Positions 3,121-37,950 of a stretch of DNA of 44,688 bases are shown here, piece after piece. A program made the translations under genes and the position numbers. This DNA comes from a phage: the sequence record PX880098.1; one strand, given 5' to 3'. Positions within the stretch are counted from its first letter, which is position 1. Every line of letters begins with the position of its first letter. The notes below the pieces were generated by a model. The model was not told the origin of the DNA, ran no database searches, and worked only from the letters and a program-made list of their open reading frames with translations.

Positions 3121-3149
3121 ATAGTACCCTATTATATTGGTGTCTGCAA
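3121..3149 (-). promoter_or_regulatory. sigma70-like promoter, family B (TTGCAG-N17-TACTAT)
   Basis: Minus-strand reading TTGCAGacaccaatataatagggTACTATTCA; 17-nt spacer; contains ATAG-N4-CTAT; upstream of the 71-aa gene. Confidence 0.55.
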
Positions 3150-3193
3150 ATATTATTTTTATGCGTTACACTGGTGATACTACAGGAGGGCCT

Positions 3194-4237
3194 ATGAGCT
3201 TACTTACATCCCTAATCAGCCACCAGATATGGCTGCAACGCACCGCATCCGGTGAAGTGAAAGACCTTGCGCCGTTTCTTCAGGAAATGCGGGACGAAAT
3301 CAAACAGCAGGTGCTGTTATTCGGTGACGACGGGCGAAGCACCGCGCGGTTGAATAAATTGTTACGCGACCTTGAAGAAGCACTGACCGGGATTACGGAC
3401 GACTGGCAGACAAAGCTGGCAGAAGACCTCAAAGAACTGGCAGCGTACGAGGCCGAGTGGAACGTAAAGACACTGACAGCCAACGTTAACGCGGAATTTG
3501 TTACGCCTACTGCCGAGCAAGTGTGGGCCGCCGCCGAGTTTCAACCTCTGTCACTAAGTGACAAGCCTGTCGATTTCACCAAGCTGATGTCTGGTTGGGG
3601 TGAAACGGAGGTGGCGCGCCTGGTAACTGGCGTTAAGATGGGCTTTGTTCAAGGCAAGACTACACGGCAGATTGTAAAAGAAGTAGTCGGTAAAGGCGGG
3701 CTGGCTGACGTATCGGAGAAATACGCAGCTACGGTAATCCGCACCGCGCTGTCTCACGTGTCCAATGAAGCACGCAACGAGACGTACCGCCAGAACGACG
3801 ACATCATCGAGAAGTATGAGTGGGTGTCAACGCTGGACAGCCGTACCAGTACGATTTGCAGAGCCCGGGACGGAATGACGTGGGAAATTGGTAAAGGGCC
3901 AATGCCCCCAGCCCATCCGAATTGTCGGTCGTGCACGGCCCCGGTAATCAGTTCAGAGTTCGACTTCCTCGATAAAGGTGCAAAACGTGCGGCTAAGGGT
4001 GCGGACGGGGGTACTCAGGTTAGCGCAGACACAACCTATTACGAGTTCCTGAAACAACAACCGGCATGGTTTCAGGATGAAGCACTCGGCCAGGTTCGGG
4101 GTAAGATTTTCCGCAACAGCGGTATATCACCGGAAGAGTTTCGCGTAATATCTGTAGATGGTTTCGGGAATCCGCTCACGCTTAAGCAGATGGCGGAACT
4201 CGATAAACGTGTTGCTGATTATCTGAAAGGGGAATAA
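3194..4237 (+). CDS. head morphogenesis protein (Mu gpF / SPP1 gp7-like)
   Basis: Follows portal; C-terminal region with PMPPAHPNCRSC resembles Mu F-like minor head proteins; start chosen at ATG 3194 after GGAGGG; listed ORF begins at TTG 3137 inside the promoter. Confidence 0.6.
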   Translation: MSLLTSLISHQIWLQRTASGEVKDLAPFLQEMRDEIKQQVLLFGDDGRSTARLNKLLRDLEEALTGITDDWQTKLAEDLKELAAYEAEWNVKTLTANVNAEFVTPTAEQVWAAAEFQPLSLSDKPVDFTKLMSGWGETEVARLVTGVKMGFVQGKTTRQIVKEVVGKGGLADVSEKYAATVIRTALSHVSNEARNETYRQNDDIIEKYEWVSTLDSRTSTICRARDGMTWEIGKGPMPPAHPNCRSCTAPVISSEFDFLDKGAKRAAKGADGGTQVSADTTYYEFLKQQPAWFQDEALGQVRGKIFRNSGISPEEFRVISVDGFGNPLTLKQMAELDKRVADYLKGE

Positions 4238-4698
4238 TGATGGGCTTTTTCAAAGTAACTGATGTGCCGTCGCGTCGTGTAGTCCAGTATGCCCGTGTGT
4301 CTGGCTCTAGAGAGAACGTGGTGTTTATTGAGGATGAAAGTGTACTAGGTACGCCAGTAGACGATATGCCGTTTGCGGACAAGACAGGTATCGCTTTACC
4401 CGCGGCAGGTATGCTTTACGAGATTCCGTATCTGGCGGACGCTGGTGACGTGTATTTCTCTGTGCAACCACAGGACGTTGAACTGGCAGACGGCAGCGCA
4501 ACTATCACTGTCGAGGTTAAGGCTGGTAAAGTGCCGTACGCTCTGACCTGGTACAAAGACGGTAGGGAAGTGGTTAATGCACCAGAAGAGGCTTTGTCTC
4601 TGACAGTTAATGCTGTTGGCGAATACTTCGTTAAAGTTACTGATGCCGATGGTGTAGAGGCTGTCAGCAAAGCGGCGAAGGTTACTAAGCCAGAATAA
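4237..4698 (+). CDS. Ig-like domain structural protein (possible decoration protein)
   Basis: 153-aa ORF; TAATG overlap with upstream gene; Ig-like signature YALTWYKDGREV...GEYFVKVTD. Confidence 0.5.
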   Translation: MMGFFKVTDVPSRRVVQYARVSGSRENVVFIEDESVLGTPVDDMPFADKTGIALPAAGMLYEIPYLADAGDVYFSVQPQDVELADGSATITVEVKAGKVPYALTWYKDGREVVNAPEEALSLTVNAVGEYFVKVTDADGVEAVSKAAKVTKPE

Positions 4699-4702
4699 AC
4701 TG

Positions 4703-4725
4703 AAGCCCCGAAAGGGGCTTTTTAG
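4703..4725 (+). terminator. rho-independent terminator
   Basis: AGCCCC-GAAA-GGGGCT hairpin followed by TTTTT, right after the stop at 4698. Confidence 0.7.
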
Positions 4726-4775
4726 TGTCTGTGATTATTCCATTTATTCCACCGAATTGTAAATGTTGGAATAAA

Positions 4776-4787
4776 CTATTCGAATAG
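4776..4787. promoter_or_regulatory. perfect 12-bp palindrome CTATTCGAATAG abutting a -35 element
   Basis: Self-complementary 12-mer immediately upstream of TTGACT at 4788; shares ATAG/CTAT half-sites with the promoter-embedded palindromes. Confidence 0.5.
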
Positions 4788-4816
4788 TTGACTTTTCACT
4801 AAAAATGTGCTAAGCT
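4788..4816 (+). promoter_or_regulatory. sigma70-like promoter (TTGACT-N17-TAAGCT)
   Basis: -35 TTGACT, 17-nt spacer, -10 TAAGCT; upstream of the spanin genes; preceded by ATGTTGGAATAA motif also found at about 5545. Confidence 0.45.
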
Positions 4817-4996
4817 CCACCTGAGCTTGTGAAGTATGAACAAGCGACCGCGGCGCGGGCAGGTAACGGAGCGGGACGTAAGTCCTGAGTGTAGTTACGC
4901 TGACGCGTTCGGAAGGGCCATACTCTATTGCTTGTGTAAAAAGGAACGGGTTTACTGAGATTACGCCGTTTCTATGTTTAAATGATAAGGACTAGC

Positions 4997-5023
4997 GCCC
5001 CGCTTTATGGCGGGGCTTTACTT
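4997..5023 (+). terminator. hairpin with T run upstream of the spanin start (terminator or attenuator)
   Basis: GCCCCGC-TTTATG-GCGGGGC followed by TTTACTT; lies between the 4788 promoter and the ATG at 5042. Confidence 0.45.
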
Positions 5024-5041
5024 ATCGAGAAAGGGGGAAAC

Positions 5042-5428
5042 ATGAATCTTAAAGCAACTGTCGTAGCGGGGGCATGTTTCATCATCCTGCTATACGCACA
5101 CGGCTACTATCAGTACCGCGTAGGCTGGACCGAAGGCCGGGCGAATCTCGTTTCGCAGCAACAGCAGAAAGCACAGGCTGAGTTAGCGAAGAAAACACAA
5201 CGGCAGCAGCAGGACGAATCAAAGGCCGCTGGTGCTGACAACGAAGGCAAGACGAAATCAGAGGTGATTACCCGTGAAGTCGTTAAGTACATTAAAACGC
5301 CTGGCCGCAGCGTGTGCACTTTCGACGATGCTCGCGTCCTGCTCAAGTCCCGCGCCGTCGCCAACGCCAATTCCATCCCCGGATACGACGATGATGCAGC
5401 CGCCGTGCAAACTGGCAGCGCCAAGTAG
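5042..5428 (+). CDS. i-spanin (Rz-like)
   Basis: N-terminal TM helix (ATVVAGACFIILLYAHGYY), Q/K/A/E-rich coiled-coil periplasmic region; SD AAGGGGGAA before ATG 5042; contains an overlapped lipoprotein ORF. Confidence 0.6.
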   Translation: MNLKATVVAGACFIILLYAHGYYQYRVGWTEGRANLVSQQQQKAQAELAKKTQRQQQDESKAAGADNEGKTKSEVITREVVKYIKTPGRSVCTFDDARVLLKSRAVANANSIPGYDDDAAAVQTGSAK

Positions 5429-5537
5429 CGACGCCGATGAGGATTTGGCTATCGACGTTCAGAACGCCGAATGCGTACGGCAATTGCGCCTGAAAGTGTT
5501 CATGTTGCAGGATTACGTGAGGAATATTCTGGAATAG
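5274..5537 (+). CDS. o-spanin (Rz1-like lipoprotein), overlapped with the i-spanin gene
   Basis: Signal peptide with lipobox LASC, proline-rich mature part SSPAPSPTPIPSP; starts in another frame inside the Rz-like gene and extends beyond its stop. Confidence 0.55.
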   Translation: MKSLSTLKRLAAACALSTMLASCSSPAPSPTPIPSPDTTMMQPPCKLAAPSSDADEDLAIDVQNAECVRQLRLKVFMLQDYVRNILE

Positions 5538-5619
5538 TTGCCTTGCATGTTGGAATAATTTATTCTTGACATGTAAATCCGGGTGGCCCGGGTTCCAACG
5601 TCCAGGGGACATACTGACT

Positions 5620-6324
5620 ATGAATCGTTTTTTACGTTATCCGTTCCAGGAAGAAGCTGGAGCAGAAGATAAATCTGGTGGCGGTGATGCGCCGAAAATG
5701 TTCACCGCTGAAGAAGTTCAGGCGCTGATTGAGAAAGAAGTCGCCGGGCTTAAGGCCAATCAGGAAGCATTGCTGGCGGAGAAGAAAGAAGCCGCCCGTA
5801 AAGCAAAAGAGGCTGAAGAAGAGCGGCAGCGCGCACACCAGGAGGCGTTAAAAGCCGCTGGTAAGATGGACGAGTTCGAAAAGACGATTCGTAGCCAGTA
5901 TGACCCGGTGTTAGCCGAGAAAGATGGTCGCATCTCCAGAATGGCAGAGCGCATCCTCGGCAGCGAACGTAAAGCGGTGCTAGGCTCTTTCGCGGGCGAC
6001 TTTATTACCCCGGAAGCAGTAGACATTCTTGCTCCGTTCGTTAAGACTGAGTTCGAAGGCGATGACGTGGTTACTAAGTTTGTCGGTGCAGATGGCAATG
6101 TAATCACGACTGACCCGGAACAGTTCCGCAAATACCTGCGTGAACACAAAGCGTTTTCGCATTTGATTAAAGCAAATGCAGCTTCCGGCGGCGGGGCTTC
6201 CGGCAGCAAAGGCGGCGGGGCCGCACCAGCGTTTAAAGACATGAGTGAAGCGGAGCGCATTGCTCTGTACGAATCGAACCCTGCCGAATTTGAACGGCAA
6301 CTTAAAGCCCTGAGGAAAAAATAA
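5620..6324 (+). CDS. scaffolding protein (putative)
   Basis: Directly upstream of the major capsid gene; highly charged alpha-helical sequence (KEAARKAKEAEEERQRAHQEALKAAG); start at ATG 5620 after AGGGGA. Confidence 0.6.
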   Translation: MNRFLRYPFQEEAGAEDKSGGGDAPKMFTAEEVQALIEKEVAGLKANQEALLAEKKEAARKAKEAEEERQRAHQEALKAAGKMDEFEKTIRSQYDPVLAEKDGRISRMAERILGSERKAVLGSFAGDFITPEAVDILAPFVKTEFEGDDVVTKFVGADGNVITTDPEQFRKYLREHKAFSHLIKANAASGGGASGSKGGGAAPAFKDMSEAERIALYESNPAEFERQLKALRKK

Positions 6325-7373: not shown

Positions 7374-7388
7374 GGTTAAGCTATAATC

Positions 7389-7417
7389 GAGAGGGACTTC
7401 GGTCCCTCTTTTCATTT
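7389..7417 (+). terminator. rho-independent terminator after the capsid gene
   Basis: AGAGGGAC-TTCG-GTCCCTCT hairpin followed by TTTCATTT. Confidence 0.7.
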
Positions 7418-7432
7418 ACTAAGAGGTAAATT

Positions 7433-7732: not shown

Positions 7733-7744
7733 AGGAGCTTAAAA

Positions 7745-8095: not shown

Positions 8096-8131
8096 TACAA
8101 CGGCCCCTCGGGGCCGTAATAAGGAAAGGTC

Positions 8132-8311: not shown

Positions 8312-8314
8312 TTT

Positions 8315-8827: not shown

Positions 8828-8829
8828 AA

Positions 8830-10608: not shown

Positions 10609-10610
10609 AT

Positions 10611-14208: not shown

Positions 14209-14249
14209 GCTGTAGCTCCTGTTTGAGTTAACATTGTTAGTGTAAGTGA

Positions 14250-14278
14250 ATAGTATCCTATTATGTTGGGGAGTGCAA
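14250..14278 (-). promoter_or_regulatory. sigma70-like promoter, family B (TTGCAC-N17-TACTAT)
   Basis: Minus-strand reading TTGCACtccccaacataataggaTACTATTCAC, almost identical to the plus-strand copy at 36092; drives the Imm/MPE/HAD/kinase operon. Confidence 0.6.
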
Positions 14279-14385
14279 GTAATGTGTTAGAATTATTTTG
14301 CGCCTAGTGTCGCACACGAAAAGCGGGTGGTTCCCGTCTGGCGCATTAACCTTAACCAGTAACCTCTTAACCAAAGGATTAAAGA

Positions 14386-18873: not shown

Positions 18874-21410
18874 TCCTGCACTACACGCGAAATGCTAACG
18901 GTGTTTTCGACCGCACAAAACACGTCGGGACGCCGATGGAGTTTGTCGTCAACAATATCCCCGACGGCGTTCCTGTGCGCGTATATCTCGGTGAGATTGG
19001 TGATGACACCGATATCACTGACGACTTCGACGCGCTTAAAGACGAGGACGCGGTGTTCCACATAGTAGAAGGAGCTGGTGGCGGTGCGCTTGTAGTAGGT
19101 GCGCTTGTTGCGTTGGTCGTCGTCGCGGCTACGGTTTTACTAACTAAGAAACCTAGTCTGGCGGTAACAGCGACAAATAACCAAGCAAAATCCGCTAATA
19201 ACAGCCTCACAGACCGCTCCAACAAACCACGGCCTTATGAGCGCTCTTATGATATCTGCGGGACGGTGCAGACTATACCCAACGACCTGATGCAGACGTA
19301 TAAGGCGTTCGACAATATCGGGAATTTACTAGAATACTCGTACTATGACGCGGGGCGCGGGTATCTGCATATTGAGGCTGACGGTGTCACAGAGGGCGAC
19401 ACCCTGATAAGTGACATCACAGGCTCCTCTGTTGCCGTGTATGCGCCATATACCTCCCCGAACAACACCGCGTCACCGCAACTACAAATCGGCGACGTCA
19501 TTGACCAGAAACTCTATGTAACATACTCCAACGACGACGTTGACGGTATTGTACTAAAAGCGCCAAACGACATTGGGGCTAACCCAAGCGCCGACGGCAC
19601 AGCTAAACGCATTTCAAACACCGGCTACATCTATGACCCGTCAGGAGACTCTGCTTTTTCTGAGTTTCTTAGCGTTGGTGATATCGCGGTGCTGAGCAAC
19701 TTCGATGTTGCTGATGTCACTAACCTGAACGGCTCGTTTGAGGTTTTATATGTTGACGACTTCGAAGTGAGATTAGCCGTAAACGGTGCTTCTAACTGGA
19801 CAGCGTTGACCAGCGGGCAGACGTACACACTAACTGAGCGTTCGGATACTTTCATAGGCCCGCGCGACACCTATGATGTGTCCTTGACCGACTGGTACTA
19901 CATGGTACGGGGAGAGGTTGACCGCGTGCTCGCTAACGTTGCCGGGCAGAACGGCCTCTACAAATACGACGGAGGTTATAGTCGCGCCAACGTAACCGTA
20001 GAACTCCAGTACCAGATGATTGATTCTCAACGTAACCCGTTGGGGGATATCTACACAGTACAGGCCACAGTTACCGGTAATAGCACTGATTACGTCGGCA
20101 CGTCCATTTATGGGCAATTGCCTACTGCATCGCGTTTCCGCGCCCGCATGCGCCGTGTAACTAATTTCGATAAAGACTACGACGGTACGGTAAGCGACGA
20201 GATAACATTCACCAACCTGTATGGGCAGTCTCTGGACACAACCCCGCACTACGGAAACCGAACTACCGTACATTGCGCACGTAAACAGACGCCGCGGGCC
20301 GCAAGTATCGATAACCCTGAACTACGCATGATTGCGACCGAGATGTGCTACAAATACCTCGGCAACGGGGTATTCGATACCGAGATGACCCCTAATACAC
20401 AGGCGGTGCAGTCGCTAATCAGACTTGCCAGAGACCCCGCAGTGGGTAATCTGGAACTGACAACGGCAAACATGGACAAGTTACTTGCTGTGCAGGAAGA
20501 AATTGAGTCCTATTTCGGAAGTGAATTAGCGGGGCAATTCTGCTACACGTTCGACGACTATGACACAACTATGCAGGACATTGTTCAGACCATAGCGGAA
20601 GCCGTGTTCTGTACTGCATACCGTAAAGGTGCGGATATTATGCTGCGATTCGACCGTCCTGTCGCGGGTCCTGAAATGGTGTTCACCCACCGCAGTAAGA
20701 CGACAGGAACGGAGAAATGGACGCGCACATTCAACGATTCGACAACCTACGATAGCCTGTCGTTCTCGTACATTGACCCGGATACAAACGTGCGGGAAAC
20801 TATTTATATCCCGGAAGAACTCGGCGCAAACACCGAGGAATATGAATCGAAGGGCGTGCGTAACTATCAGCAAGCGTACTGGCTGGCATGGCGTCGTTAC
20901 CAGCGCAATGCGTTAAGTAAAGTTGTCGTAGAGTTCGAAGCTACGGAAGAAGGTGCTCTCGCTACTCCCGGCGGCGTAATCAGTGTGGTTAAAGGCTCGC
21001 GTATCGCGCCGCAGGATGGCTATGTTGTTGCCGTTAATGGGCTTACGCTGACACTGTCGCAGCCTGTTACGTTTACCCCCGGCGATGACCACTCCATCAT
21101 CCTCAAGAAGCGCGACGGCTCTGTTCAGAGTATCTCTGTTATCAAAGGAAGCCACGACCGCGAGGTGATTATGCTATCCGCGCCGGAGGAGGCAATCTAC
21201 ACGGGGAATAGCGCGCTAAAAACCGAGTTTTCATTCGGCAACGAAGCAAGGCATAATGCTCAGAAGATAGTTGTTTCTTCAATCGACCCGGGCGACGACC
21301 GCACGGTCAAGATTACTGGCTACAACTATGACGACGGATTCTATAAATACGACGGCGTCGCGCCTCACGGCAGCGGTTTCTCCGACGGATTAAGCAACGG
21401 TTTTAGTTAA
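18864..21410 (+). CDS. tail tip / central fiber protein (gpI-like N-terminus fused to gpJ-like body)
   Basis: 848-aa ORF; N-terminal GAGGGALVVGALVALVVVAATVLL hydrophobic patch typical of lambda I-like proteins; listed start is TTG, true start may be ATG 18936. Confidence 0.55.
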   Translation: MAIILHYTRNANGVFDRTKHVGTPMEFVVNNIPDGVPVRVYLGEIGDDTDITDDFDALKDEDAVFHIVEGAGGGALVVGALVALVVVAATVLLTKKPSLAVTATNNQAKSANNSLTDRSNKPRPYERSYDICGTVQTIPNDLMQTYKAFDNIGNLLEYSYYDAGRGYLHIEADGVTEGDTLISDITGSSVAVYAPYTSPNNTASPQLQIGDVIDQKLYVTYSNDDVDGIVLKAPNDIGANPSADGTAKRISNTGYIYDPSGDSAFSEFLSVGDIAVLSNFDVADVTNLNGSFEVLYVDDFEVRLAVNGASNWTALTSGQTYTLTERSDTFIGPRDTYDVSLTDWYYMVRGEVDRVLANVAGQNGLYKYDGGYSRANVTVELQYQMIDSQRNPLGDIYTVQATVTGNSTDYVGTSIYGQLPTASRFRARMRRVTNFDKDYDGTVSDEITFTNLYGQSLDTTPHYGNRTTVHCARKQTPRAASIDNPELRMIATEMCYKYLGNGVFDTEMTPNTQAVQSLIRLARDPAVGNLELTTANMDKLLAVQEEIESYFGSELAGQFCYTFDDYDTTMQDIVQTIAEAVFCTAYRKGADIMLRFDRPVAGPEMVFTHRSKTTGTEKWTRTFNDSTTYDSLSFSYIDPDTNVRETIYIPEELGANTEEYESKGVRNYQQAYWLAWRRYQRNALSKVVVEFEATEEGALATPGGVISVVKGSRIAPQDGYVVAVNGLTLTLSQPVTFTPGDDHSIILKKRDGSVQSISVIKGSHDREVIMLSAPEEAIYTGNSALKTEFSFGNEARHNAQKIVVSSIDPGDDRTVKITGYNYDDGFYKYDGVAPHGSGFSDGLSNGFS

Positions 21411-23708: not shown

Positions 23709-23890
23709 TTCTTACCTTCGCTTTTCTTGAAACTGCACTTTATGTCCGGCAGCGTGTAGCACCGTGATTTTTCGTATTTACCGTTCGAGCTTACCAAAAC
23801 AAAGCTGTTGCCGTCTTTTGATATGTACTCGACAATAAAAGTATTGGATGTATGTACGCTGTATATTTCGTCTCCAACATTAAGCTTCAT
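23705..23890 (-). CDS. hypothetical protein (61 aa)
   Basis: ATGA-coupled ORF downstream of helicase gene. Confidence 0.5.
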   Translation of the reverse strand: MKLNVGDEIYSVHTSNTFIVEYISKDGNSFVLVSSNGKYEKSRCYTLPDIKCSFKKSEGKK

Positions 23891-26352
23891 TTCTTACCTC
23901 GTCTCTTCATGTAATTAAGCAATTCTTCCTGGACAGATTTCTTCTCGTCAGTGCGCGCGGCGACAACCTCATCCAGCGTGTCTTTAGCAACGATGTGGTA
24001 TAGGAACACAGGGCGCTCGTGACCCGCCTGTTTCTGGCGTACTGGGCCTATACGCTCAACAACCTGCAAATAGTGCTCAAGGTTCCAGCCTTGTGAAATG
24101 AATGCCAGATGATGCCCTCCGTCCTGTAAATTCAAACCATGGCCCGCTGACGCAGGATGCACGCATAATATTTCGATTTCCCCGCGGTTCCACGCTTCCA
24201 TCTGCTTATTACCTTTAACGCCTTTGGCAAACGCCTGCGCCTGCGGGAATCGCTTAAGGATGCGCTCCAGTTCGTGCTTGAACTGATAGGCCACTAGTAA
24301 CGGCGCACCCTGTAGCTCCTCAACAATGGACTCCAGAGCATCCAGTTTCGTGTCGTGTACTTTCTCCCAGTCTTTCGTTGCTTCGCCATCTGGCCCTGAT
24401 ACGTATACGGCACCGGATGCAATCTGCAGACACTTAGAGGTCTTCGCCGCAGCGTTAGCCGCTTCAACTTCTCCGCTCTCCAGTTCAGCAAATAACTTCT
24501 CCTCCATATCGATGTACGCCTGACGCGCTTTCTTCGGCAGGTCAATTTCAACCGGTACAATTATTGGCGCTTCACAACCAAACCACTCGGCAGCGTCAAT
24601 CGTGAGACTAATGTCCTTCATCTTCTGGTGAATTTCGTTATCCGCACCTGGGCGGGCGTGGTATTCGCGCGCCATAGCCGATTTGCCTTTCTGTACCGAG
24701 TTAAACCAGCGGTCGGTGAATGCTGTGTATGATGACCCCAGGCGCTCGCCAGCGTCGATAAACCAGTTCTGGCCCCACAAGTCCTTGAGGCCGTTTGGTG
24801 ACGGTGTACCGGTCAGATTGATGAAACGTTTAACATTACCGAACGCCACTTTGCTTAGTGCCTTTGCTCGCTTGCTTCCGCCAGAACGGCTGCGGAATGA
24901 TTTCAACTTCGTGCTCTCATCGGCAACAATAACCGTAAAAGGCCAGTCGTCTTTGCCGTAGTAGTCAATCAGCCACTCGATTACCTCATAGTTCGTGCAC
25001 ACCACGTTAGCGTCGGACTCCAGCGCCGCGATGCGGCGCTTCTCTGAACCGGTCGCATCTACGACGCGCAGACAAGGGAAACCCCACTTAGTTTGTTCTG
25101 CCGGCCATGTGCCGGACGCAACACGCAACGGCGCAAGGATTAACACACGGTCGTCATCATTAAGTTGGCCGTTGCGGAACAGCCGATTGAGAACCCACAT
25201 CGTCGAGCTTGTGTTGTGCGTTACGGTGAAGTCGCCTAATAGAAACCGGTGGTCACCGTCGATAGTGAAGCCGTAATAATCATCTACGCCGACCGGGGTT
25301 ATAGATTCTATTCCAACGTTAAGTACGTTTTTATTAATATTACGCTTCGGTAAATTCTGGTGGCGGCCACGCACGAAAGGCACCTCAGAAAAATCGCCTG
25401 ATACCGATACGCGGAAGTAATCCCCCCAAACATCAGTGTTTGCGCAACGCTTACGAGTTTTCTTCTTGTAAGCGGCGAAACCAAGAGAACGGCATAGATA
25501 GCAAAAATCATCAGCGAGTCGCTCGCTTACCGAAATCCAGTCAAAACCTGCTTTAGACAAATCACAATAACCGTCGCTATCCAGAAGCCCCGCCAGCAAT
25601 TCTAAACGTTGCTGCCGGTCGCCGCATTTGTAATTATGCGGTATATGCTTATGGTTCAAGACCCCCGCCGACCTCAGCGCGTGCGTAAGCCCGTGCTTCT
25701 TATTGCCAGTATTGCCGTAAGATATACTCCATGTAAGTCCTTCTTTTCGTATTTGCATCCCATTACGCGCTGCGTACGATTCAAGATACTCCCTTATTTC
25801 CTTTTCGTTTTCCCCAGATGTTATGGCTCCCGACGATGAGGTGCCATCACCAAGCCACAGCCCCATAAGGTACGGGGGCAATAAAGCATCGTCCTGATCT
25901 TTCCTCGGGAAATCGACAGGTACTCGCCAACCCTTAAGATACCCATTAGGTCCGGTTACATATTTCGGCAACTTAAGCCAGTCGCGGACGCTTATGTCGA
26001 AAACGGTATTATCCGGCCATGAACCCTTTGCTATCCCTGTAGTAGTTCGCAGTGATAATATATGGCTTTCGTTTACCGTATACGACTCTCCTTTTCGCGG
26101 TTTAACCTCGTACATCATCTCCCGGCCTCTACCGAGAGACAGTACATTTCTAGGCGTTGAATCTGGCCCCATAAGCACGTCACCGACGATGACGTCTTCT
26201 ACTTTCTTGGTCGTACCGTCAAACATAATAACTTCAGTCCCGCGTTTCAGGCACTTGCCGCTACCCATACTTGCCCAGATATTACAGCGCGGGTTCCGCA
26301 GCATGAACGAGGTCATGAGCTTTTGATAAGGCCTTCTAGTGAATTTACTCAT
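23887..26352 (-). CDS. SNF2-family helicase interrupted by an intein
   Basis: Walker A split as MGSGK|intein|TSS; DExx-like box VIVADESTKLK; NLTGTPSPNGLKDLW and GHGLNLQDGG helicase motifs. Confidence 0.75.
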   Translation of the reverse strand: MSKFTRRPYQKLMTSFMLRNPRCNIWASMGSGKCLKRGTEVIMFDGTTKKVEDVIVGDVLMGPDSTPRNVLSLGRGREMMYEVKPRKGESYTVNESHILSLRTTTGIAKGSWPDNTVFDISVRDWLKLPKYVTGPNGYLKGWRVPVDFPRKDQDDALLPPYLMGLWLGDGTSSSGAITSGENEKEIREYLESYAARNGMQIRKEGLTWSISYGNTGNKKHGLTHALRSAGVLNHKHIPHNYKCGDRQQRLELLAGLLDSDGYCDLSKAGFDWISVSERLADDFCYLCRSLGFAAYKKKTRKRCANTDVWGDYFRVSVSGDFSEVPFVRGRHQNLPKRNINKNVLNVGIESITPVGVDDYYGFTIDGDHRFLLGDFTVTHNTSSTMWVLNRLFRNGQLNDDDRVLILAPLRVASGTWPAEQTKWGFPCLRVVDATGSEKRRIAALESDANVVCTNYEVIEWLIDYYGKDDWPFTVIVADESTKLKSFRSRSGGSKRAKALSKVAFGNVKRFINLTGTPSPNGLKDLWGQNWFIDAGERLGSSYTAFTDRWFNSVQKGKSAMAREYHARPGADNEIHQKMKDISLTIDAAEWFGCEAPIIVPVEIDLPKKARQAYIDMEEKLFAELESGEVEAANAAAKTSKCLQIASGAVYVSGPDGEATKDWEKVHDTKLDALESIVEELQGAPLLVAYQFKHELERILKRFPQAQAFAKGVKGNKQMEAWNRGEIEILCVHPASAGHGLNLQDGGHHLAFISQGWNLEHYLQVVERIGPVRQKQAGHERPVFLYHIVAKDTLDEVVAARTDEKKSVQEELLNYMKRRGKK
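25213..26253 (-). mobile_element. intein with LAGLIDADG homing endonuclease domain (347 aa)
   Basis: Begins with Cys after GSGK, ends THN followed by Thr; two LAGLIDADG-like motifs LMGLWLGDGTS and LAGLLDSDGY; C-terminal block FLLGDFTVTHN. Confidence 0.75.
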
Positions 26353-26570: not shown

Positions 26571-26858
26571 CTAACTATAATAGTATGCTATTAGGGTGTC
26601 AACCTGTTTTATAGAGCCAACCACAAAAACATTCGCACCACGTTTACGCATCCGCTCGTGTTCACGTAACTGGTGCGGGTCTGGCTTCGTGTTTTCGTCT
26701 TTCTTCACCTCGACGAACCAGACTATGCCGCCAGGGAGAATTACCAGCAGGTCAGGAGCGCCGGAACGTCCTTCGTAGGAGAGCTTACGAACGAGGCCAC
26801 CCAGGGCCTCGAATCGCCCCTTCGCATATTTCTGTACGCGCCCCTCAGGCGTACTCAT
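26571..26858 (-). CDS. VRR-NUC domain nuclease
   Basis: PD-(D/E)xK signature GAPDLLVILPGGIVWFVEVKK; SD GAGAGGGG upstream. Confidence 0.55.
   Translation of the reverse strand: MSTPEGRVQKYAKGRFEALGGLVRKLSYEGRSGAPDLLVILPGGIVWFVEVKKDENTKPDPHQLREHERMRKRGANVFVVGSIKQVDTLIAYYYS
26574..26602 (-). promoter_or_regulatory. sigma70-like promoter, family A (TTGACA-N17-TATAGT)
   Basis: Minus-strand reading TTGACAccctaatagcatactatTATAGT with AT-rich upstream region; contains ATAG-N4-CTAT. Confidence 0.6.
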
Positions 26859-30041: not shown

Positions 30042-30070
30042 ACTATAATAGCTAACTATTCAGGTGTCAA
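30042..30070 (-). promoter_or_regulatory. sigma70-like promoter, family A (TTGACA-N17-TATAGT)
   Basis: Minus-strand reading TTGACAcctgaatagttagctatTATAGT; near-identical to the copy at 32491. Confidence 0.6.
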
Positions 30071-31927: not shown

Positions 31928-31970
31928 ATTTCCGACCCTCAGTTAAAGCGGCCCGAAAGCCGCCGGATAA

Positions 31971-32459: not shown

Positions 32460-32490
32460 TTGTTTCTCTCCTCTCGTTTAGTATGGGCTA

Positions 32491-32520
32491 ACTATAATAG
32501 CTAACTATTCATGTTGTCAA
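32491..32520 (-). promoter_or_regulatory. sigma70-like promoter, family A (TTGACA-N18-TATAGT)
   Basis: Minus-strand reading TTGACAacatgaatagttagctatTATAGT; divergent from the HTH gene. Confidence 0.6.
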
Positions 32521-32584
32521 TGGGCTTTTCTAAAATAATTAATATGGTACTATTCACATATCAACTGACTAAGGAGTAATTGAC

Positions 32585-32800
32585 ATGCAACCATCTGAGC
32601 TAGGTATCCGTGTAGAACAACGCCGCAAAGAACTCGGCATCTCCCAGCGCCGTCTGGCTGTCCTGGCCGGCGTTTCCCAGGGCGCGATTAACCAACTGGC
32701 TCTCGGGGTAACTCAGGACGTCCGCCCGGCAACTCTGTTTAAACTGGCGGAAGTGCTGCAAGTAGACGCCAAGTGGCTGGCGTTCGGTGAAGGGGCTTAA
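32585..32800 (+). CDS. XRE-family HTH transcriptional regulator (Cro-like)
   Basis: 71 aa; HTH ISQRRLAVLAGVSQGAINQLALG; only plus-strand gene in the replication block, divergent from a family A promoter. Confidence 0.7.
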   Translation: MQPSELGIRVEQRRKELGISQRRLAVLAGVSQGAINQLALGVTQDVRPATLFKLAEVLQVDAKWLAFGEGA

Positions 32801-32816
32801 CGCCCCTTTCTTTTTG
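32790..32816 (+). terminator. intrinsic terminator after HTH gene
   Basis: GGGGC-TTAAC-GCCCC followed by TTTCTTTTTG. Confidence 0.6.
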
Positions 32817-32817
32817 C

Positions 32818-35100
32818 CTATTCCAAATCCTCCTCTGTCACCACCAGCATTTCATTAGGTTCGTATATTGTCTTCGGCCTTAGTCTATCCCCTATTCTTT
32901 CAGGTATACGATACGTTCGCGGCACTACTTCGCCGTTAGCGTCACAGCCTAGCATTAGTTCGCCATCTTTCAGCATTTTATCAAGATGGGTGTTAGTCAC
33001 AGAAAAGTCACCGGAACGGGCAACTATCTGCTGCTGAGTAAAACCGCGACCTGTGTCATCTGACTGTTGCAGGTCTTCCAGTGCCGAAAGTATTGACTCC
33101 TTTCTCCCTTCATCCCTGCCGCGTTTAACTTCTTCCTTTACTTTTTCTTTACCTTTATCGGATAGCCCTTCTTCCCGCTCCTTCTCCTCGTCAGTTTTGA
33201 ACGGCTCGAAGCCCCACGGCATCAATACAAGCGCTTTGTGCGGTTCAGGCAGGTCGAGGTTTACGATTGTGCCGTATTCCTCTGTGCTACCCCGGAACTC
33301 AACCGCGCGGTACTCTTTCGGCGGCGGGGCTTCGCGGAACTGTACGGACTCAAGCACCATGCCAACCGTTTTCTGCTGAGGCCCGTGCTTAAATTTTGAG
33401 TGGTATACGTTTATCTGACGGTCGGTAGCGCGTTCGATTGTCAGCTCTACGTCAACGCCCGCGTACAGCGCCCCACTGCCACGGGCTTTCTTTCCACCCT
33501 TCGGCGTATGGTGGACGACGCCTACCGCGGCTTTAGTCGCGTCGCGTACTTCTTTCAGGATGGCGATGACTTTACCCATGCCGATTGCCGTTGATGAACT
33601 GTTCTCGTCGAACTTATCAATCGTCAGGGCCAGGGTCTGGTTAAGGGTGTCGAACGCGACCATGCCAATTGGCTCGTCGCCAGCAGTTTCTCGCATCAGC
33701 TTAATCAGGCTTTTCAGTTTTCCGACTTCACCCATATCGATGACGTGTACATAATCTTTACCTTCCACGCCATATTTAGCCGCGAGCGCGTCAATACGTG
33801 TGCGGGTGGCGGCACCGCCCTCCCCGTCGATATAGAAATGGTGGCAACGCTGGGTGTCCGCCCCTGCAAACCTGTATCCGGCGGCGCTGAGGTACATCAT
33901 CCCCAGCGTATAAAACGATTTGTACGTACCGGATTCCCCAACAATATCCCAGATGCAATCTGACGGCATGTACCCTTCAACGACGAAATCAGCCTTTACC
34001 GGTTCCGGCAACTCGCCCTCCTCTGAGTCTTCGTCATCTTCCAGGTCGTCAAGGCTGCATGAAACGGACTCCCGCGCACCCCAACCTATAGCCTCTGCAA
34101 CCTCACTGAACGGAAGCCCGGTCGCGTCGCACGCGTATTTCCACACCTCTTTCGGTGACATGCCTTCGGTCGCCGTAATGTCGGTGTCGTGAATCATGGT
34201 TACGTTCGGCGCTTCGTACCCCTCGCGCGGGAAGCACAGCAGGAAGTCATCTGGCCTCGGCGTCGGGTCGCTGTATTTTTCTGCGTGTTCCGGCGTAGCT
34301 GGCATCTTAAGGCCGCGCGGCGTCATGATACCGCCGTATTCAAACGCCAGCGCCTCAAACGCATCGGTAAACGCTGTGCGCAGTTCTTCCGGTATCTGGT
34401 AATCCGACGCGCTGCTAACGTCGACGGCTGGGATGCCTTCCAGTAACTCGTCCGGGTCAATCAGGTCGTTGCGACGAGACCAGATAACCTGAGAGCCGAC
34501 CGGCGGCAGGTACATCGGCTGCGACAGAGTGAACCCGCTGCGGTCAGCACCCATGCCTTTAAAGAAGTGCTCCAGCAATCCGTGACGAACGCGGATGATG
34601 TCACCGCCTTCAACCGGACGACCCAGAGGCATGACTACGCGAAAGCGCGGTGACTCATCGGTATGTGATGCCGTGGTGTAGAGACACATAGCCCGACGGC
34701 TGCGCTTAACCAGACGCACTGCTTCCTGGTACTCTTCCGGTGTTGCACTGTCGAAGTCCAGATACGCCAGCGACGATTTGCTTACAGACGCGTCACAGCG
34801 ATAAAAGAAACCTTTGCGCGCTTGCTTAAAGTCACCGGTTTCCGGGTCTTTTACGGTGCTGTGCGTTGAGTCGCACGCGGCAGTGATATAGCCAGGCGCT
34901 GTCTTCGGGTTAACCCCGTCTCGAATGGCATCGAGCGGCTGTATTAACTCTTTCAGGTCGTCCAGTGTTGCCGTGTGCGTGGTTCTGACGTTTATATCCT
35001 TTTTCTCAGCCCGCGCGTTGCGACGTGACCACGAGTAGGATAAAATTACATCGGACATGTTGTATATTCCTTCAGCAAGTAATTTGGCCTCGGCGTTCAC
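32818..35100 (-). CDS. primase-helicase (AEP-type primase domain fused to P-loop NTPase)
   Basis: AEP-like DxD motif AYLDFDSATPEEY and SH-TDE motif in N-terminal half; Walker A GESGTYKS in C-terminal half; C-terminus TEEDLE. Confidence 0.6.
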   Translation of the reverse strand: MNAEAKLLAEGIYNMSDVILSYSWSRRNARAEKKDINVRTTHTATLDDLKELIQPLDAIRDGVNPKTAPGYITAACDSTHSTVKDPETGDFKQARKGFFYRCDASVSKSSLAYLDFDSATPEEYQEAVRLVKRSRRAMCLYTTASHTDESPRFRVVMPLGRPVEGGDIIRVRHGLLEHFFKGMGADRSGFTLSQPMYLPPVGSQVIWSRRNDLIDPDELLEGIPAVDVSSASDYQIPEELRTAFTDAFEALAFEYGGIMTPRGLKMPATPEHAEKYSDPTPRPDDFLLCFPREGYEAPNVTMIHDTDITATEGMSPKEVWKYACDATGLPFSEVAEAIGWGARESVSCSLDDLEDDEDSEEGELPEPVKADFVVEGYMPSDCIWDIVGESGTYKSFYTLGMMYLSAAGYRFAGADTQRCHHFYIDGEGGAATRTRIDALAAKYGVEGKDYVHVIDMGEVGKLKSLIKLMRETAGDEPIGMVAFDTLNQTLALTIDKFDENSSSTAIGMGKVIAILKEVRDATKAAVGVVHHTPKGGKKARGSGALYAGVDVELTIERATDRQINVYHSKFKHGPQQKTVGMVLESVQFREAPPPKEYRAVEFRGSTEEYGTIVNLDLPEPHKALVLMPWGFEPFKTDEEKEREEGLSDKGKEKVKEEVKRGRDEGRKESILSALEDLQQSDDTGRGFTQQQIVARSGDFSVTNTHLDKMLKDGELMLGCDANGEVVPRTYRIPERIGDRLRPKTIYEPNEMLVVTEEDLE

Positions 35101-35117
35101 CGCGTCGGGGCTTTCTT

Positions 35118-35351
35118 TTATTCCAGGTCTTCTAAAGTAGCGGTCATTCCGCGAACTTCAGCAACAGCGCTATATTTCCCGCCCACATTTTTCACGACAC
35201 CGGATTTAACCAGTACTCGTAACGACGCTTCAATAATGGCGGAACTATAGTACTTAAAATAACTACGGCGCAAGTCGATAACACTGCACGACCCTTTTTT
35301 ACGTGTTAACGAAACTACAGCTGTGAATACCCGTGACTGAAACTCGGTCAT
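35118..35351 (-). CDS. hypothetical small protein (77 aa), possible winged-helix
   Basis: ATGA-coupled to upstream HTH ORF; C-terminus TATLEDLE. Confidence 0.5.
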   Translation of the reverse strand: MTEFQSRVFTAVVSLTRKKGSCSVIDLRRSYFKYYSSAIIEASLRVLVKSGVVKNVGGKYSAVAEVRGMTATLEDLE

Positions 35352-35518
35352 TTCACGTTCTCCTTAATCCATGCTTCCACTTTCTCCGGGTCGAACGTGC
35401 CTGGCTGCCGGCGGCCCATAATGCGAATACAACAATCCGGGAACTTCCCACTCTTTAACCAGTTATTGAGCGTGCGGCGAGTAACCCCGATACGCTCAGC
35501 TACTTCATTCTGTGTCAT
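35348..35518 (-). CDS. AlpA/Xis-like HTH DNA-binding protein (56 aa), absent from ORF track
   Basis: SD AAGGAG before ATG 35518; HTH VAERIGVTRRTLNNWLKSGKFP; stop overlaps next start (ATGA). Confidence 0.6.
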   Translation of the reverse strand: MTQNEVAERIGVTRRTLNNWLKSGKFPDCCIRIMGRRQPGTFDPEKVEAWIKENVK

Positions 35519-35657
35519 CTTTAATCTCCTTAATTATTTCACGCGCTAACGCTGTAGCTGTGCCGTATTTATTGGGGCAGTATCTGCTCTCATTATGCCC
35601 ACTAAACCACGCTTCTATCAGCAACTCTTTCAACTGTTCTTCTGTCAAAGTAACCAT
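35505..35657 (-). CDS. small protein (50 aa), absent from ORF track
   Basis: First ORF after minus-strand promoter 35690-35718; SD GAGGG; overlaps downstream gene start. Confidence 0.4.
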   Translation of the reverse strand: MVTLTEEQLKELLIEAWFSGHNESRYCPNKYGTATALAREIIKEIKDDTE

Positions 35658-35689
35658 TCTCAAACCCTCATTATCAGTTAACGAAACCG

Positions 35690-35718
35690 AGTATACATTG
35701 CGAATAATGGGAAATCAA
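35690..35718 (-). promoter_or_regulatory. sigma70-like promoter (TTGATT-N17-TATACT) of the leftward operon
   Basis: Minus-strand reading TTGATTtcccattattcgcaatgTATACT; back-to-back with the plus-strand promoter at 35734. Confidence 0.5.
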
Positions 35719-35733
35719 ACACAATCGCACCTA

Positions 35734-35762
35734 TTGACATTAAGAAAATCTTCGTTTAAGGT
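35734..35762 (+). promoter_or_regulatory. sigma70-like promoter (TTGACA-N17-TAAGGT), rightward
   Basis: Consensus -35 TTGACA with 17-nt spacer and TAAGGT; no ORF for about 380 nt downstream; terminator at 35999. Confidence 0.45.
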
Positions 35763-35998
35763 GCTTCTATATCTTAGTTACTTTGATTCCTGTTCACCTT
35801 GTAAAACCCGCCGAAAACGAGCGCCCAACGCGAAGTGTTAGGCGGCAGTTTACTGAACACGAGAATTATTGTAACTTTCCGTCCTTAGTATCTCCGGTTG
35901 CCATGGGCAAGCTCTATTCTCATCGGCAGCATATCTCTTAAGTATCTGATTTTCTTAATGTGCCGTAGATTCGCAACCGTAAAAATGTAACGATTATT

Positions 35999-36026
35999 GG
36001 GCAGGCTTAAGGCCTGCCCTTTAGTT
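35999..36026 (+). terminator. intrinsic terminator in divergent control region
   Basis: GGGCAGGC-TTAAG-GCCTGCCC followed by TTTAGTT. Confidence 0.6.
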
Positions 36027-36091
36027 ACCAAGTAATAAGAATAATGGCACAACAGTTCCTAAATAATCACAACGGCAACGCAATTAATCTC

Positions 36092-36120
36092 TTGCACGCC
36101 CCAACATAATAGGATACTAT
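36092..36120 (+). promoter_or_regulatory. sigma70-like promoter, family B (TTGCAC-N17-TACTAT)
   Basis: TTGCACgccccaacataataggaTACTATTCAC; contains ATAG-N4-CTAT; upstream of the PAPS-reductase-like gene. Confidence 0.6.
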
Positions 36121-36154
36121 TCACTTATAGTGACGAGACAGAGGAGTGATGGTC

Positions 36155-36916
36155 ATGAGCAAGCCGGTAATAGCGGTCTGGTTTTCGTGTGGTGCTGCCA
36201 GTGCGGTAGCTGCAAAAATAACTATCGAGAAATACAGTCATACTCATGATGTGCGTGTGCTTAACAACCCGGTGGCAGAGGAGGACGCTGACAACATACG
36301 TTTTCTTCATGATGTTGAAAATTGGATAGGTGTGAAAATTGAATCAGTAATTAACCCTATGTTCCCGAACGCCAGCGCTGTAGAGGTCTGGGACCATCAG
36401 CGTTATATGTCCGGCATTGCTGGAGCACCATGTACGAAGGCACTTAAGAAGCTCGCCAGAAAGCATTGGGAGCAATCAAATCGCTGTGACCATATCGTGC
36501 TTGGTTTTACTGCTGATGAGGCGCATCGCGCAGATAATTTCGTCAAAAACGAAAGGCGCAGTTTGATTCCAGTTCTGATTGAAGCCGGATACACAAAAGG
36601 AGACTGCTTTCGAATCCTTCTGGAGAACGGCATTCGACTTCCTCGTATTTATCACTTGGGTTACCCAAACGCGAACTGCATAGGATGTGTAAAAGCCACA
36701 TCTCCAACCTACTGGAATCTTGTCCGTCGCGTTCATCCTGAGGTATTTGTCCAACGTGCAGAGCAATCACGACGATTGGGTGTTCGTCTTGTTAGATATT
36801 CCGGAGAGCGCATCTATCTCGACGAGTTGCCGCCAGACGCAGTTGGCCGCCCAATAAAAAGTCTTGATTTTGAATGTGGGATTTTCTGTAAACCAGCAGA
36901 TGAGGATGAAGAATGA
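36155..36916 (+). CDS. PAPS reductase-like / PP-loop ATP pyrophosphatase superfamily protein with C-terminal Cys pairs
   Basis: N-terminal VWFSCGAAS at the position of a PP-loop SGGxDS; C-terminal CIGC and CGIFC; start ATG 36155 chosen 8 nt after GAGGAG. Confidence 0.5.
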   Translation: MSKPVIAVWFSCGAASAVAAKITIEKYSHTHDVRVLNNPVAEEDADNIRFLHDVENWIGVKIESVINPMFPNASAVEVWDHQRYMSGIAGAPCTKALKKLARKHWEQSNRCDHIVLGFTADEAHRADNFVKNERRSLIPVLIEAGYTKGDCFRILLENGIRLPRIYHLGYPNANCIGCVKATSPTYWNLVRRVHPEVFVQRAEQSRRLGVRLVRYSGERIYLDELPPDAVGRPIKSLDFECGIFCKPADEDEE

Positions 36917-37254
36917 AAACTGATATCACCGAACTGACTCAGAGAGAGCTTTATGCAAAAGTTGAGAAGCAAGCTCATTCCCTTCGAGGAAATCCATTTG
37001 AATATATGGTAATAACCGGGATGTGTCCTGTGAACGTTGTCGAATTACATGCTAAGAAAATACAATCCTTACTAACAGATCAAATTGGTTATAAAGAGGA
37101 GATTGCAGCACTCCGCCAGCGCATCGCTGAGCTGGAGTCACGCACCGTGACTTCCTATTGCGATACCGACAACCACCAGTTCGAAAGACTCAGCGACCAC
37201 AAACATCACTTCATCAACGGCACTTGCGTAGAGTGCCTGGCTAAAAGTGAATAA
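36913..37254 (+). CDS. hypothetical protein (113 aa) with C-terminal Cys/His cluster
   Basis: ATGA-coupled; coiled-coil middle; CDTDNHQF...HKHHFINGTCVEC suggests metal binding. Confidence 0.5.
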   Translation: MKTDITELTQRELYAKVEKQAHSLRGNPFEYMVITGMCPVNVVELHAKKIQSLLTDQIGYKEEIAALRQRIAELESRTVTSYCDTDNHQFERLSDHKHHFINGTCVECLAKSE

Positions 37255-37439
37255 CTACCTGTTCATATTAATTATAAGTGCGCTCTATGTGGCGCACGCT
37301 TTAGTGGAGACGCATCTATGACCAGACACCAACGACGTCGCTACACACTAACAAAGTTCAGTTTCAACACGGATTTTAAAGAACGAACGGCATCGAATCA
37401 TGATGCCCGTGCCTACGACTCTGAGGGAGGTTGCCGTTA

Positions 37440-37631
37440 ATGAAAATTCGTATAACTGATGTTGATTATGTGCTGCCGCCGGATTATGGCGACCATTCAC
37501 TGCGTTACTTTGGCATCTCCGTCGGGGATGATTTCGATGTTACGTCAAGTAATGATTTTGGCCACTTCGTCGAACACTGCGGTGAGGAACTGTACGTGCG
37601 TAACCGTGAATGTGAAGTTCTGGAGGACTAA
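37440..37631 (+). CDS. hypothetical protein (63 aa)
   Basis: ATG 37440 preceded by GAGGGAGG; listed ORF starts at upstream TTG. Confidence 0.5.
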   Translation: MKIRITDVDYVLPPDYGDHSLRYFGISVGDDFDVTSSNDFGHFVEHCGEELYVRNRECEVLED

Positions 37632-37634
37632 GTT

Positions 37635-37784
37635 ATGAGAGAAGCATTCGAACGGTGGGCCGTAGTCGAGGGTCTGCCGGTTAACAAGGGTTCGAAGAAA
37701 GAGTACCTGAACGTTAAGACGCGTCTCGCGTGGCGGGCGTGGAAAGCTGGTGCGCAATTTCGTGCTGGTGTAACAGGTCAATAG
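37635..37784 (+). CDS. small basic protein (49 aa), absent from ORF track
   Basis: SD GGAGGA before ATG 37635; 49 uninterrupted codons; followed by terminator. Confidence 0.5.
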   Translation: MREAFERWAVVEGLPVNKGSKKEYLNVKTRLAWRAWKAGAQFRAGVTGQ

Positions 37785-37807
37785 GTTACTATTTTGCTTT
37801 GTGTCTT

Positions 37808-37837
37808 ACGCTGCTACACAGCAGCGTATCATTTTTC
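37808..37837 (+). terminator. rho-independent terminator
   Basis: ACGCTGCT-ACAC-AGCAGCGT followed by ATCATTTTTC. Confidence 0.65.
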
Positions 37838-37921
37838 TCATTTTTGTTCTATTTCACCAAACGCAACAATCGAAGCGACTATTGCAGGAGATGCAACAAT
37901 ACAGGCACCAATAAAATTTAC

Positions 37922-37950
37922 TTGCACGCTAAGATAGAATAGGCTACTAT
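37922..37950 (+). promoter_or_regulatory. sigma70-like promoter, family B (TTGCAC-N17-TACTAT)
   Basis: TTGCACgctaagatagaataggcTACTATTCAT; contains ATAG-N4-CTAT; followed by conserved leader. Confidence 0.6.

Follow-up and report, generated by a model that had tools for sequence, protein, structure and literature searches.

A candidate Cro-type operator common to sigma-70-type promoters in a Kagunavirus genome

The phage sequence PX880098.1 (44,688 nt; hereafter the window, meaning this whole stretch) contains four copies of a promoter-like sequence, named family B in a first-pass annotation, ahead of accessory and early genes. The question raised by these copies is whether they represent a promoter class with its own recognition sequence or reflect an additional element common to otherwise ordinary promoters. 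The window is ~90% identical to genomes of Kagunavirus, a Guernseyvirinae genus of siphoviruses infecting E. coli, and its gene order is collinear with that of the Jerseyvirus Ent3. Genes for terminase, portal, head and tail lie on the plus strand between position 1 and ~23 kb; replication operons run leftward from 23 to 35 kb, and small genes and lysis genes run rightward from 36 kb. On the evidence of the sequence, the four-promoter feature is real, non-random and conserved, and most likely represents sigma-70 promoters with a common Cro-type operator.

The four copies are found where they had been reported and with the reported layout, in which TTGCA(C/G) is followed by a 17-nt spacer ending in AATAGG and then by TACTATTCA. 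This pattern has four exact matches in the window versus 0.14 expected, and four were reached in none of 100 shuffles. TACTATTCA alone occurs five times (0.29 expected); the fifth copy, at 32548, lies ahead of a helix-turn-helix (HTH) gene, in agreement with the weaker relative that had been noted upstream of an XRE-like gene. The near-identity of two of the copies is likewise borne out, with 14247–14279 and 36091–36123 differing at 2 of 39 positions. Each family-B site is intergenic, 20–40 nt 5′ of a ribosome-binding site and start codon, with leaders of about 22–35 nt from predicted transcript start to start codon and a GAGG/AGGAG ribosome-binding-like sequence before each start. Terminator-like hairpins close the units (2869–2851, 11804–11785, 32789–32809 and 37807–37828). 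Sigma-70 promoters call for a -35 that begins with TTG and, 16–18 bp away, a -10 with A at position 2 and T at position 6; accordingly, all four sites have a TTG-initial -35, exactly 17 bp, and then TACTAT, in an intergenic position followed by a gene with a ribosome-binding site and a closing terminator. The promoters, their predicted operators (described below) and their cargo are as follows.

3118–3149, minus strand: family-B promoter 1, with -35 TTGCAG at 3149–3144, -10 TACTAT at 3126–3121, predicted operator AATAGGGTACTATT at 3133–3120, and predicted start at ~3114
3092–2877, minus strand: cargo of promoter 1, a 71-aa gene, ending at terminator 2869–2851
14247–14278, minus strand: family-B promoter 2, with -35 TTGCAC at 14278–14273, -10 TACTAT at 14255–14250, and predicted operator at 14262–14249
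14208–14017, 13978–12848, 12851–12363 and 12363–11809, minus strand: cargo of promoter 2, respectively Imm, an exonuclease/phosphoesterase, a PNKP-type phosphatase and a dNMP kinase, followed by terminator 11804–11785
36092–36123, plus strand: family-B promoter 3, with -35 TTGCAC at 36092–36097, -10 TACTAT at 36115–36120, and predicted operator at 36108–36121
36146–36916, plus strand: first cargo gene of promoter 3, PAPS-reductase-like, followed by small open reading frames (ORFs) up to terminator 37807–37828
37922–37953, plus strand: family-B promoter 4, with -35 TTGCAC at 37922–37927, -10 TACTAT at 37945–37950, and predicted operator at 37938–37951, the most symmetric copy (GAATAG-N4-CTATTC)
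From ATG 37982, plus strand: cargo of promoter 4, a cluster of small genes

The labels previously given to the genes behind the four promoters match the profile assignments. The full set of downstream products is a 71-aa ORF without a family match, Imm_superinfect, a metallophosphatase/exonuclease, a PNKP-type phosphatase, a dNMP kinase, a PAPS-reductase-like protein (phrog_424), small ORFs and, at the fifth copy, an HTH_3/XRE protein of 71 aa. The family-B hexamers match the sigma-70 consensus at 7 of 12 positions (TTGCAC 3/6, TACTAT 4/6), which is why a generic promoter scan listing sites with at least 9/12 consensus matches missed them. The description of family B as a host-type promoter family before accessory and early genes thus holds for position, orientation, spacing and terminators, but the features by which the family was defined, the AATAGG spacer end and the TCA, are not promoter features. 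The term "extended -10" also does not apply to these sites, as the TCA sits downstream of the -10 and the usual extended -10 is a TGn upstream of it.

The AATAGG at the spacer end and TACTATTCA together contain the two arms of a 14-bp inverted repeat, AATAG-N4-CTATT. The window has 8 exact copies of this palindrome (0.01 expected) and 12 copies with at most one mismatch (1.27 expected), and at seven of these eight exact sites the palindrome overlaps a -35/-10 pair aimed at a gene. In addition to the family-B sites, exact palindromes are found in three near-consensus (11/12) leftward promoters of the form TTGACA-N17/18-TATAGT, at 26602, 30070 and 32520. Family B is therefore not a separate class with its own recognition sequence, and by its letters is the weaker-hexamer subset of one operator-bearing promoter set. 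In the TTGACA promoters, the palindrome occupies the spacer and extends to the first T of the -10 (about -25 to -12), while in family B it is 6 bp further downstream and contains the -10 hexamer (about -19 to -6). The remaining features of this set are listed here.

32491–32520, minus strand: leftward promoter TTGACA-N18-TATAGT, with a perfect predicted operator at 32496–32509 in the spacer, divergent from the regulator gene
32459–31971 and on to 31316–30075, minus strand: cargo of the 32520 promoter, the latter coordinates being those of a PD-(D/E)XK nuclease gene
30042–30070, minus strand: promoter TTGACA-N17-TATAGT, with predicted operator at 30047–30060, driving genes for a gp2.5-like SSB (29986–29360) and PolA (29301–27061)
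26574–26602, minus strand: promoter TTGACA-N17-TATAGT, with predicted operator at 26579–26592, driving a 63-aa ORF and an intein-bearing SNF2 helicase gene (26352–23887)
32541–32556, plus strand: extended -10 promoter (TG at 32545–32546, TACTAT at 32548–32553; TGgTACTAT) ahead of the regulator gene, without a -35
32585–32800, plus strand: gene for the HTH_3/XRE 71-aa regulator, followed by terminator 32789–32809
37780–37793, no strand assigned: orphan exact palindrome AATAGGTTACTATT, without a -35 partner, beginning at the stop codon of ORF 37635–37784
41195–41208, no strand assigned: one-mismatch copy ACTAGTGGACTATT, covering the -35 of a rightward promoter (41200–41228) that is conserved and comes after a terminator

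The 127-bp divergent region between 32459 and 32585 contains two palindrome copies 45 bp apart, one over each promoter. The copy over the regulator-gene promoter, AATATGGTACTATT (32541–32554), has one mismatch, which is the T of the TG motif and is invariant in 36 relatives; the 32548 copy is best read, from its position, as the autoregulatory site of the regulator. Thus, as in 434/XRE systems, the predicted operators overlap core promoter elements, including those of the regulator's own control region. The orphan palindrome at 37780–37793 lies 14 nt before terminator 37807–37828, is present in ~12 of 38 relatives, and may be an orphan operator or the remnant of a lost promoter. The copy at 41195 is a possible weak site, and its Jerseyvirus counterpart, AATAGTTGACTAGT, has its mismatch in the opposite arm compared with Kagunavirus. 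A one-mismatch hit at 4783, overlapping a TTGACT -35, may also be a weak site. The plus-strand promoter in question (4771–4796) has the one-mismatch palindrome AATAGTTGACTTTT over its -35 and an everted repeat, CTATTCGAATAG, at 4773–4784; both this promoter and that at 41195–41228 are of a TTGACT/TGGACT type on the plus strand. A further one-mismatch hit at 20501 is inside a tail-protein gene and was taken as chance. The promoter of the HTH_17/helicase-primase operon (TTGATT-17-TATACT, 35718–35690) has no palindrome copy.

Several other readings of the palindrome were set aside. An RNA hairpin was rejected because the transcript is predicted to start downstream of the palindrome, whose 5-bp AT-rich stem would be weak. 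The ARG box is TGAAT-N4-ATTCA and the sigma-54 promoter is TGGCAC-N5-TTGC; these two, the LexA box and the T4 MotA-type middle promoter misfit in spacing or letters.

The relatives of the window allow the palindrome to be separated from the promoter hexamers. Among 37 IMG/VR contigs with a regulator 78–100% identical to that of the window, every homologous site retains both 5-bp arms, whereas the four central bp of the TTGACA promoters take at least 10 variants (CTAA, TGAA, CGAA, CTCG, TTCG, TATG and others) and the family-B center is fixed only in the ..TA that is needed for TACTAT. A 14-bp two-fold site with fixed outer 5+5 bp and variable inner 4 bp is the pattern of a 434/XRE operator. Per-column conservation in Kagunavirus alone has limited power, as intergenic regions are mostly at least 70% conserved; the argument is carried by the comparison between genera. 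In the Jerseyvirus Ent3, there are four exact palindromes versus 0.04 expected, all at homologous promoters, and in Ent3 as well as a second Jerseyvirus, S134, this palindrome recurs at the counterparts of the Imm, helicase, SSB, P_L and rightward early promoters. The offset of the palindrome from the -35 is 4–5 nt in TTGACA promoters, 7 nt in the Jerseyvirus Imm promoter (TTGCAT, with -10 TATTAT) and 10 nt in family B (TTGCAC, with -10 TACTAT). Since it shifts relative to the hexamers, the palindrome is a separate element, which always covers the core promoter, and the combination of fixed arms, free center and sliding position argues that it is not part of sigma-70 recognition. In sequence, it looks like a binding site for a dimer.

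The more distant genus Cornellvirus has a related element. Phage Shemara lacks the AATAG palindrome and has ATTAG-N4-GTAWT at the homologous P_L, P_R, SSB and other promoters (5 exact versus 0.11 expected, for a pattern that was partly derived after inspection). These elements were found by direct reading of homologous promoters; a PHIRE-like search for repeated 16-mers in the whole Shemara genome recovered GC-rich coding repeats only.

The candidate for the binder is encoded beside the palindrome pair in the divergent region. The 71-aa regulator matches Pfam HTH_3 (1.2e-12), and its best solved relative is Cro of phage 434, which is also 71 aa and aligns over the full length (E 4.9e-7). A single-sequence AlphaFold2 model (predicted local distance difference test score of 84) has five helices, as expected of a small HTH_3 protein, and its top Foldseek match is 2cro (40% identity, TM 0.72–0.78), so that 434 Cro is the best match in both sequence and fold. 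The operators of 434 are 14 bp and consist of 5 contacted, 4 non-contacted and 5 contacted bp (PMC1636474). OR1-3 and OL1-3 of 434 and the sites in the window are alike in being 14-bp two-fold operators with conserved outer 5+5 bp and a variable central 4 bp, in overlapping core promoter elements, and in having copies in the divergent region beside the regulator gene. The first glutamine of the recognition helix (Q28 in 434) is also kept, and the window operator begins with A. The two systems differ in their half-sites (AATAG in the window, ACAAT in 434) and in their distribution, as the predicted operators of the window lie over about nine promoters across 35 kb, whereas those of 434 form two triplets. 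They also differ in that no CI/Cro switch is apparent in the window: a CI partner, integrase or lysogeny module was not found among the ORFs scanned, which contained a single HTH_3 gene and covered only part of the small ORFs. Neither a CI nor an integrase appears in the annotations of Ent3, S134 and Shemara. Papers on related Kagunaviruses report no lysogeny genes and treat the phages as lytic (PMC7203180, PMC9825357).

Distant XRE homologues, retrieved by protein similarity alone from unrelated IMG/VR contigs, provide a comparison outside Guernseyvirinae. At six such loci (L056, L058–L061 and L064, with 52–63% GC in the first five and 46% in L064), two or three A(A/T)TAG-N4-CTA(A/T)T palindromes lie directly 5′ of the homologue's own gene, and in L056, L059, L060 and L061 a second palindrome pair lies 0.6–2.4 kb downstream. 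Counts of this pattern in homologue contigs are 4 and 3 exact copies versus 0.00 expected. In L056, the homologue forms the N-terminal part of a CI-type repressor of 230 aa, which faces an 88-aa Cro-like gene, in the classic lambdoid layout. The recognition helix in L064 is SQGAITQ (SQGAINQ in the window), and the AATAG/CTATT arms upstream of its gene have a 5-bp center. No HTH_17 homologue is found in any of the six loci. These lambdoid-type regions resemble the window in an HTH domain that is 36–43% identical, in A(A/T)TAG half-sites and in the 5+4+5 spacing. They differ in having an S24-bearing CI that faces a Cro-like gene, with two operator clusters, whereas in the window the short Cro-like protein stands alone and the operators occur singly, at many promoters. 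By sequence comparison, these loci are an AWTAG-N4-CTAWT immunity specificity group related to the Guernseyvirinae regulator. One further apparent relative, at 40% identity (L038), proved to be an unrelated 123-aa protein on a GC-rich contig and was dropped. In the unrelated contigs, the immunity regions place a gene for an S24-peptidase CI-type repressor opposite a Cro-like gene, with an OR-like cluster in each and an OL-like pair in L056 and L059–L061 (L056, 9900–10780; L059, 9931–11224; L064, 1996–2085).

Taken together, we consider it probable that the sites in the window are host sigma-70 promoters with the operator AATAG-N4-CTATT, bound and repressed by the 71-aa 434-Cro-like protein. 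Transcription would start at these sites, the 71-aa protein would be the binder, and its binding would repress; specific binding to the operator is suggested indirectly by the distant homologues that adjoin AWTAG-N4-CTAWT clusters. Early in infection, host RNA polymerase would start at the operator-bearing promoters, with the family-B members acting as host sigma-70 promoters of moderate strength. The Cro-like protein would be made from its own promoter, which has a putatively weak operator, and its dimer would bind with one recognition helix per AATAG half-site, leaving the four central bp uncontacted. Accumulating protein would then fill the perfect operators (-25 to -6) and exclude polymerase. 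The early and replication operons and the accessory cassettes would be turned down in this way, and the regulator's own gene would follow later, at higher levels. As its promoter has no copy, the HTH_17/helicase-primase operon would escape Cro-like control.

A number of observations weigh against this proposal. The direction of control, repression and not activation, is deduced from operator position only. The family-B hexamers are weak at 7/12 to consensus, and promoter activity is therefore not certain; a search of the literature found no transcript mapping, start-site or transcriptome data for Guernseyvirinae phages. One of the exact palindromes, that at 37780, has no promoter with it. The Cornellvirus motif, defined in part post hoc, is not a strict palindrome. 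Finally, the recognition helices are SQGAINQ in Kagunavirus, SQSLITH in Jerseyvirus and TQSAISH in Cornellvirus, and the Jerseyvirus helix is no closer to that of Kagunavirus than to that of Cornellvirus, even though the operator is common to Jerseyvirus and Kagunavirus; the co-variation of helix and operator is therefore not clean. The Cornellvirus regulator is 39–41% identical to the XRE protein of the window.

The simplest alternative is a plain promoter family without a regulator, in which the copies are alike through duplication or cassette movement and the palindrome arises incidentally from AT-rich, -10-like sequence. Consistent with duplication, the copies at 14247 and 36092 are 37/39 identical, and the module, including its 5′ leader, precedes different cargo genes in different phages. 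There are also -10-like letters in both arms, and at two sites a promoter is scored on the opposite strand as well. Common descent does not, however, explain fixed arms with a changing center and changing flanks, or the three different offsets from the -35, or the presence of the same arms in otherwise unrelated TTGACA promoters and beside distant CI/Cro homologues of GC-rich phages, and we regard this explanation as improbable.

Alternatively, the palindrome could be an operator for a binder other than the XRE protein, namely the 56-aa HTH_17 (excisionase/MerR-like) protein encoded at 35518–35348 or another phage or host factor. The distribution of the HTH_17 protein counts against the 71-aa protein as binder: it is 86–89% identical between Kagunavirus and Jerseyvirus, which have the identical palindrome, and is absent from Cornellvirus, the genus without the AATAG palindrome, while the XRE proteins of Kagunavirus and Jerseyvirus share only 51% identity. 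Yet a related element persists at these promoters in Cornellvirus, which has no HTH_17 homologue (a hidden Markov model search with E up to 10 returned nothing), and the promoter of the HTH_17 operon itself (35718–35690) has no copy. Moreover, AWTAG-N4-CTAWT clusters accompany distant XRE homologues at loci without an HTH_17 homologue, and a 5+4+5 two-fold site has the geometry of 434 Cro. We regard a binder other than the XRE protein as improbable as well.

The repeats themselves are already on record. The same 20-mers occur at homologous positions, seven per genome, in VB_EcoS-Golestan, where they were predicted as promoters by PHIRE (PMC7203180, Table S4), and in fBC-Eco01, with the consensus tgAATAGTa-ccTATTat-T (PMC9825357, Table S2). 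In these papers, the PHIRE "phage promoters" are reported as repeated promoter-like sequences only; the passages retrieved by term search mention neither dyad symmetry nor a link to an HTH gene, and the word "repressor" appears in neither text. The fBC-Eco01 paper lists the 20-mers that PHIRE picks as "phage RNAP promoters" and assigns them to a phage-encoded RNA polymerase (PMC9825357), an assignment that we consider practically untenable because no RNA polymerase gene is found in the window and each site has a correctly spaced sigma-70-type -35/-10 pair. All window ORFs longer than 400 aa are otherwise assigned (terminase, portal, tape measure, tail protein, tailspike, SNF2 helicase with intein, PolA, PD-(D/E)XK nuclease and helicase-primase), and the annotations of Ent3, S134 and Shemara likewise contain no such polymerase. 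As far as we found, the operator reading of these repeats is new, and of a well-known kind.

A Cro-like protein acting through dispersed operators also invites comparison with the C1 repressor of phage P1, which maintains lysogeny and whose operators are asymmetric 17-mers dispersed over the genome. In P1, as is proposed for the window, one repressor serves many single scattered operators at promoters of unrelated functions. The P1 system differs in that C1 is unrelated to the window regulator, its operators are asymmetric, and its role is in lysogeny. An operator-bearing promoter set of this type is an ordinary kind of phage gene control, and the understanding of phage gene control is unchanged by it. 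Its value would lie in giving Guernseyvirinae, widely isolated for therapeutic and food-safety uses, a regulatory map that can be tested cheaply, with one small repressor, one 14-bp site and about nine target promoters. It would also correct the published "phage RNA polymerase promoter" label, explain why accessory genes of different origin have one upstream sequence in common, and offer engineering a compact promoter/operator/repressor set with natural insertion slots.

Such slots are seen at family-B promoters 1 and 2. Within the structural module, which is on the plus strand, the units at 3149 and 14278 form cassettes on the minus strand that have promoters and terminators of their own, and they have what defines a moron: an independent promoter-gene-terminator unit between conserved genes, with cargo that differs among close relatives. 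The slot between the portal and head-morphogenesis genes contains other cargo in phiWAO78-1, fBC-Eco01 and Ent3, and fBC-Eco01 has a second slot with the same promoter module. The shared module consists of the -35, the operator/-10 and part of the leader. The 71-aa gene in the window's portal/head slot (2877–3092, minus strand; distinct from the regulator gene) has no DNA match in any Guernseyvirinae record, whereas its promoter does match. Its product has no Pfam or PHROG match; hypothetical proteins encoded by jumbo E. coli phages (~350 kb) and by large Klebsiella phages (~140 kb) are ~70% identical to it, and the gene looks like recently captured foreign cargo. The cassettes resemble known morons as promoter-gene-terminator units in the late region, with cargo in the portal/head slot that varies among relatives, and differ from them in that the promoter is not arbitrary but is the phage's own operator-bearing promoter, by which the cargo would be tied to the early regulon.

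On the opposite strand of these two family-B promoters, the promoter scan gives rightward promoter-like pairs that overlap the palindrome (TCGATA-17-TATATT at 3110–3138 and TTAACA-17-TAGTAT at 14228–14256, both plus strand). They face the genes for head morphogenesis and the tail chaperone, and these genes are located downstream of cassette terminators. These pairs could be divergent promoters that share the operator and restart late transcription.

A more speculative extension, to which we give a rather low probability, is that the Cro-like protein and its approximately nine dispersed operators constitute a global clock, that the promoter and leader form a portable slot, and that the bound dimer balances two-way transcription at the cassettes. 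If there is such a clock, a phage without lysogeny genes would have its early, replication and accessory transcription shut off by one Cro-like protein. If the slot operates as suggested, any newly captured foreign gene would be wired into the clock at once. If transcription at the cassettes is bidirectional, one dimer would balance leftward accessory transcription against the rightward restart of late genes.

Other features of the window concern mobile elements and small genes. The 821-aa SNF2-type helicase gene (23887–26352, minus strand) contains an intein with a LAGLIDADG homing endonuclease (Hom_end_hint + LAGLIDADG_3 + SNF2-rel_dom); the intein-bearing arrangement is also annotated in Ent3, and the helicases of S134 and Shemara are intein-free. 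An HNH/NUMOD3 homing-endonuclease gene (43842–44681, plus strand) lies as an insertion between the two terminase genes, small and large. A stretch of ~570 bp (35519–36090), from the HTH_17/helicase-primase operon to the 36092 promoter, is without a convincing gene and contains hairpins at 35822–35844 and 35999–36019; the Ent3 counterpart of this gap is ~1 kb and unannotated. Lastly, two small ORFs that head different operons, 35505–35663 (minus strand) and 37982–38131 (plus strand), begin with the same nucleotides (ATGGTTACTTTGA..., protein MVTL...), and their products belong to different PHROG families (phrog_20928 and phrog_4653).

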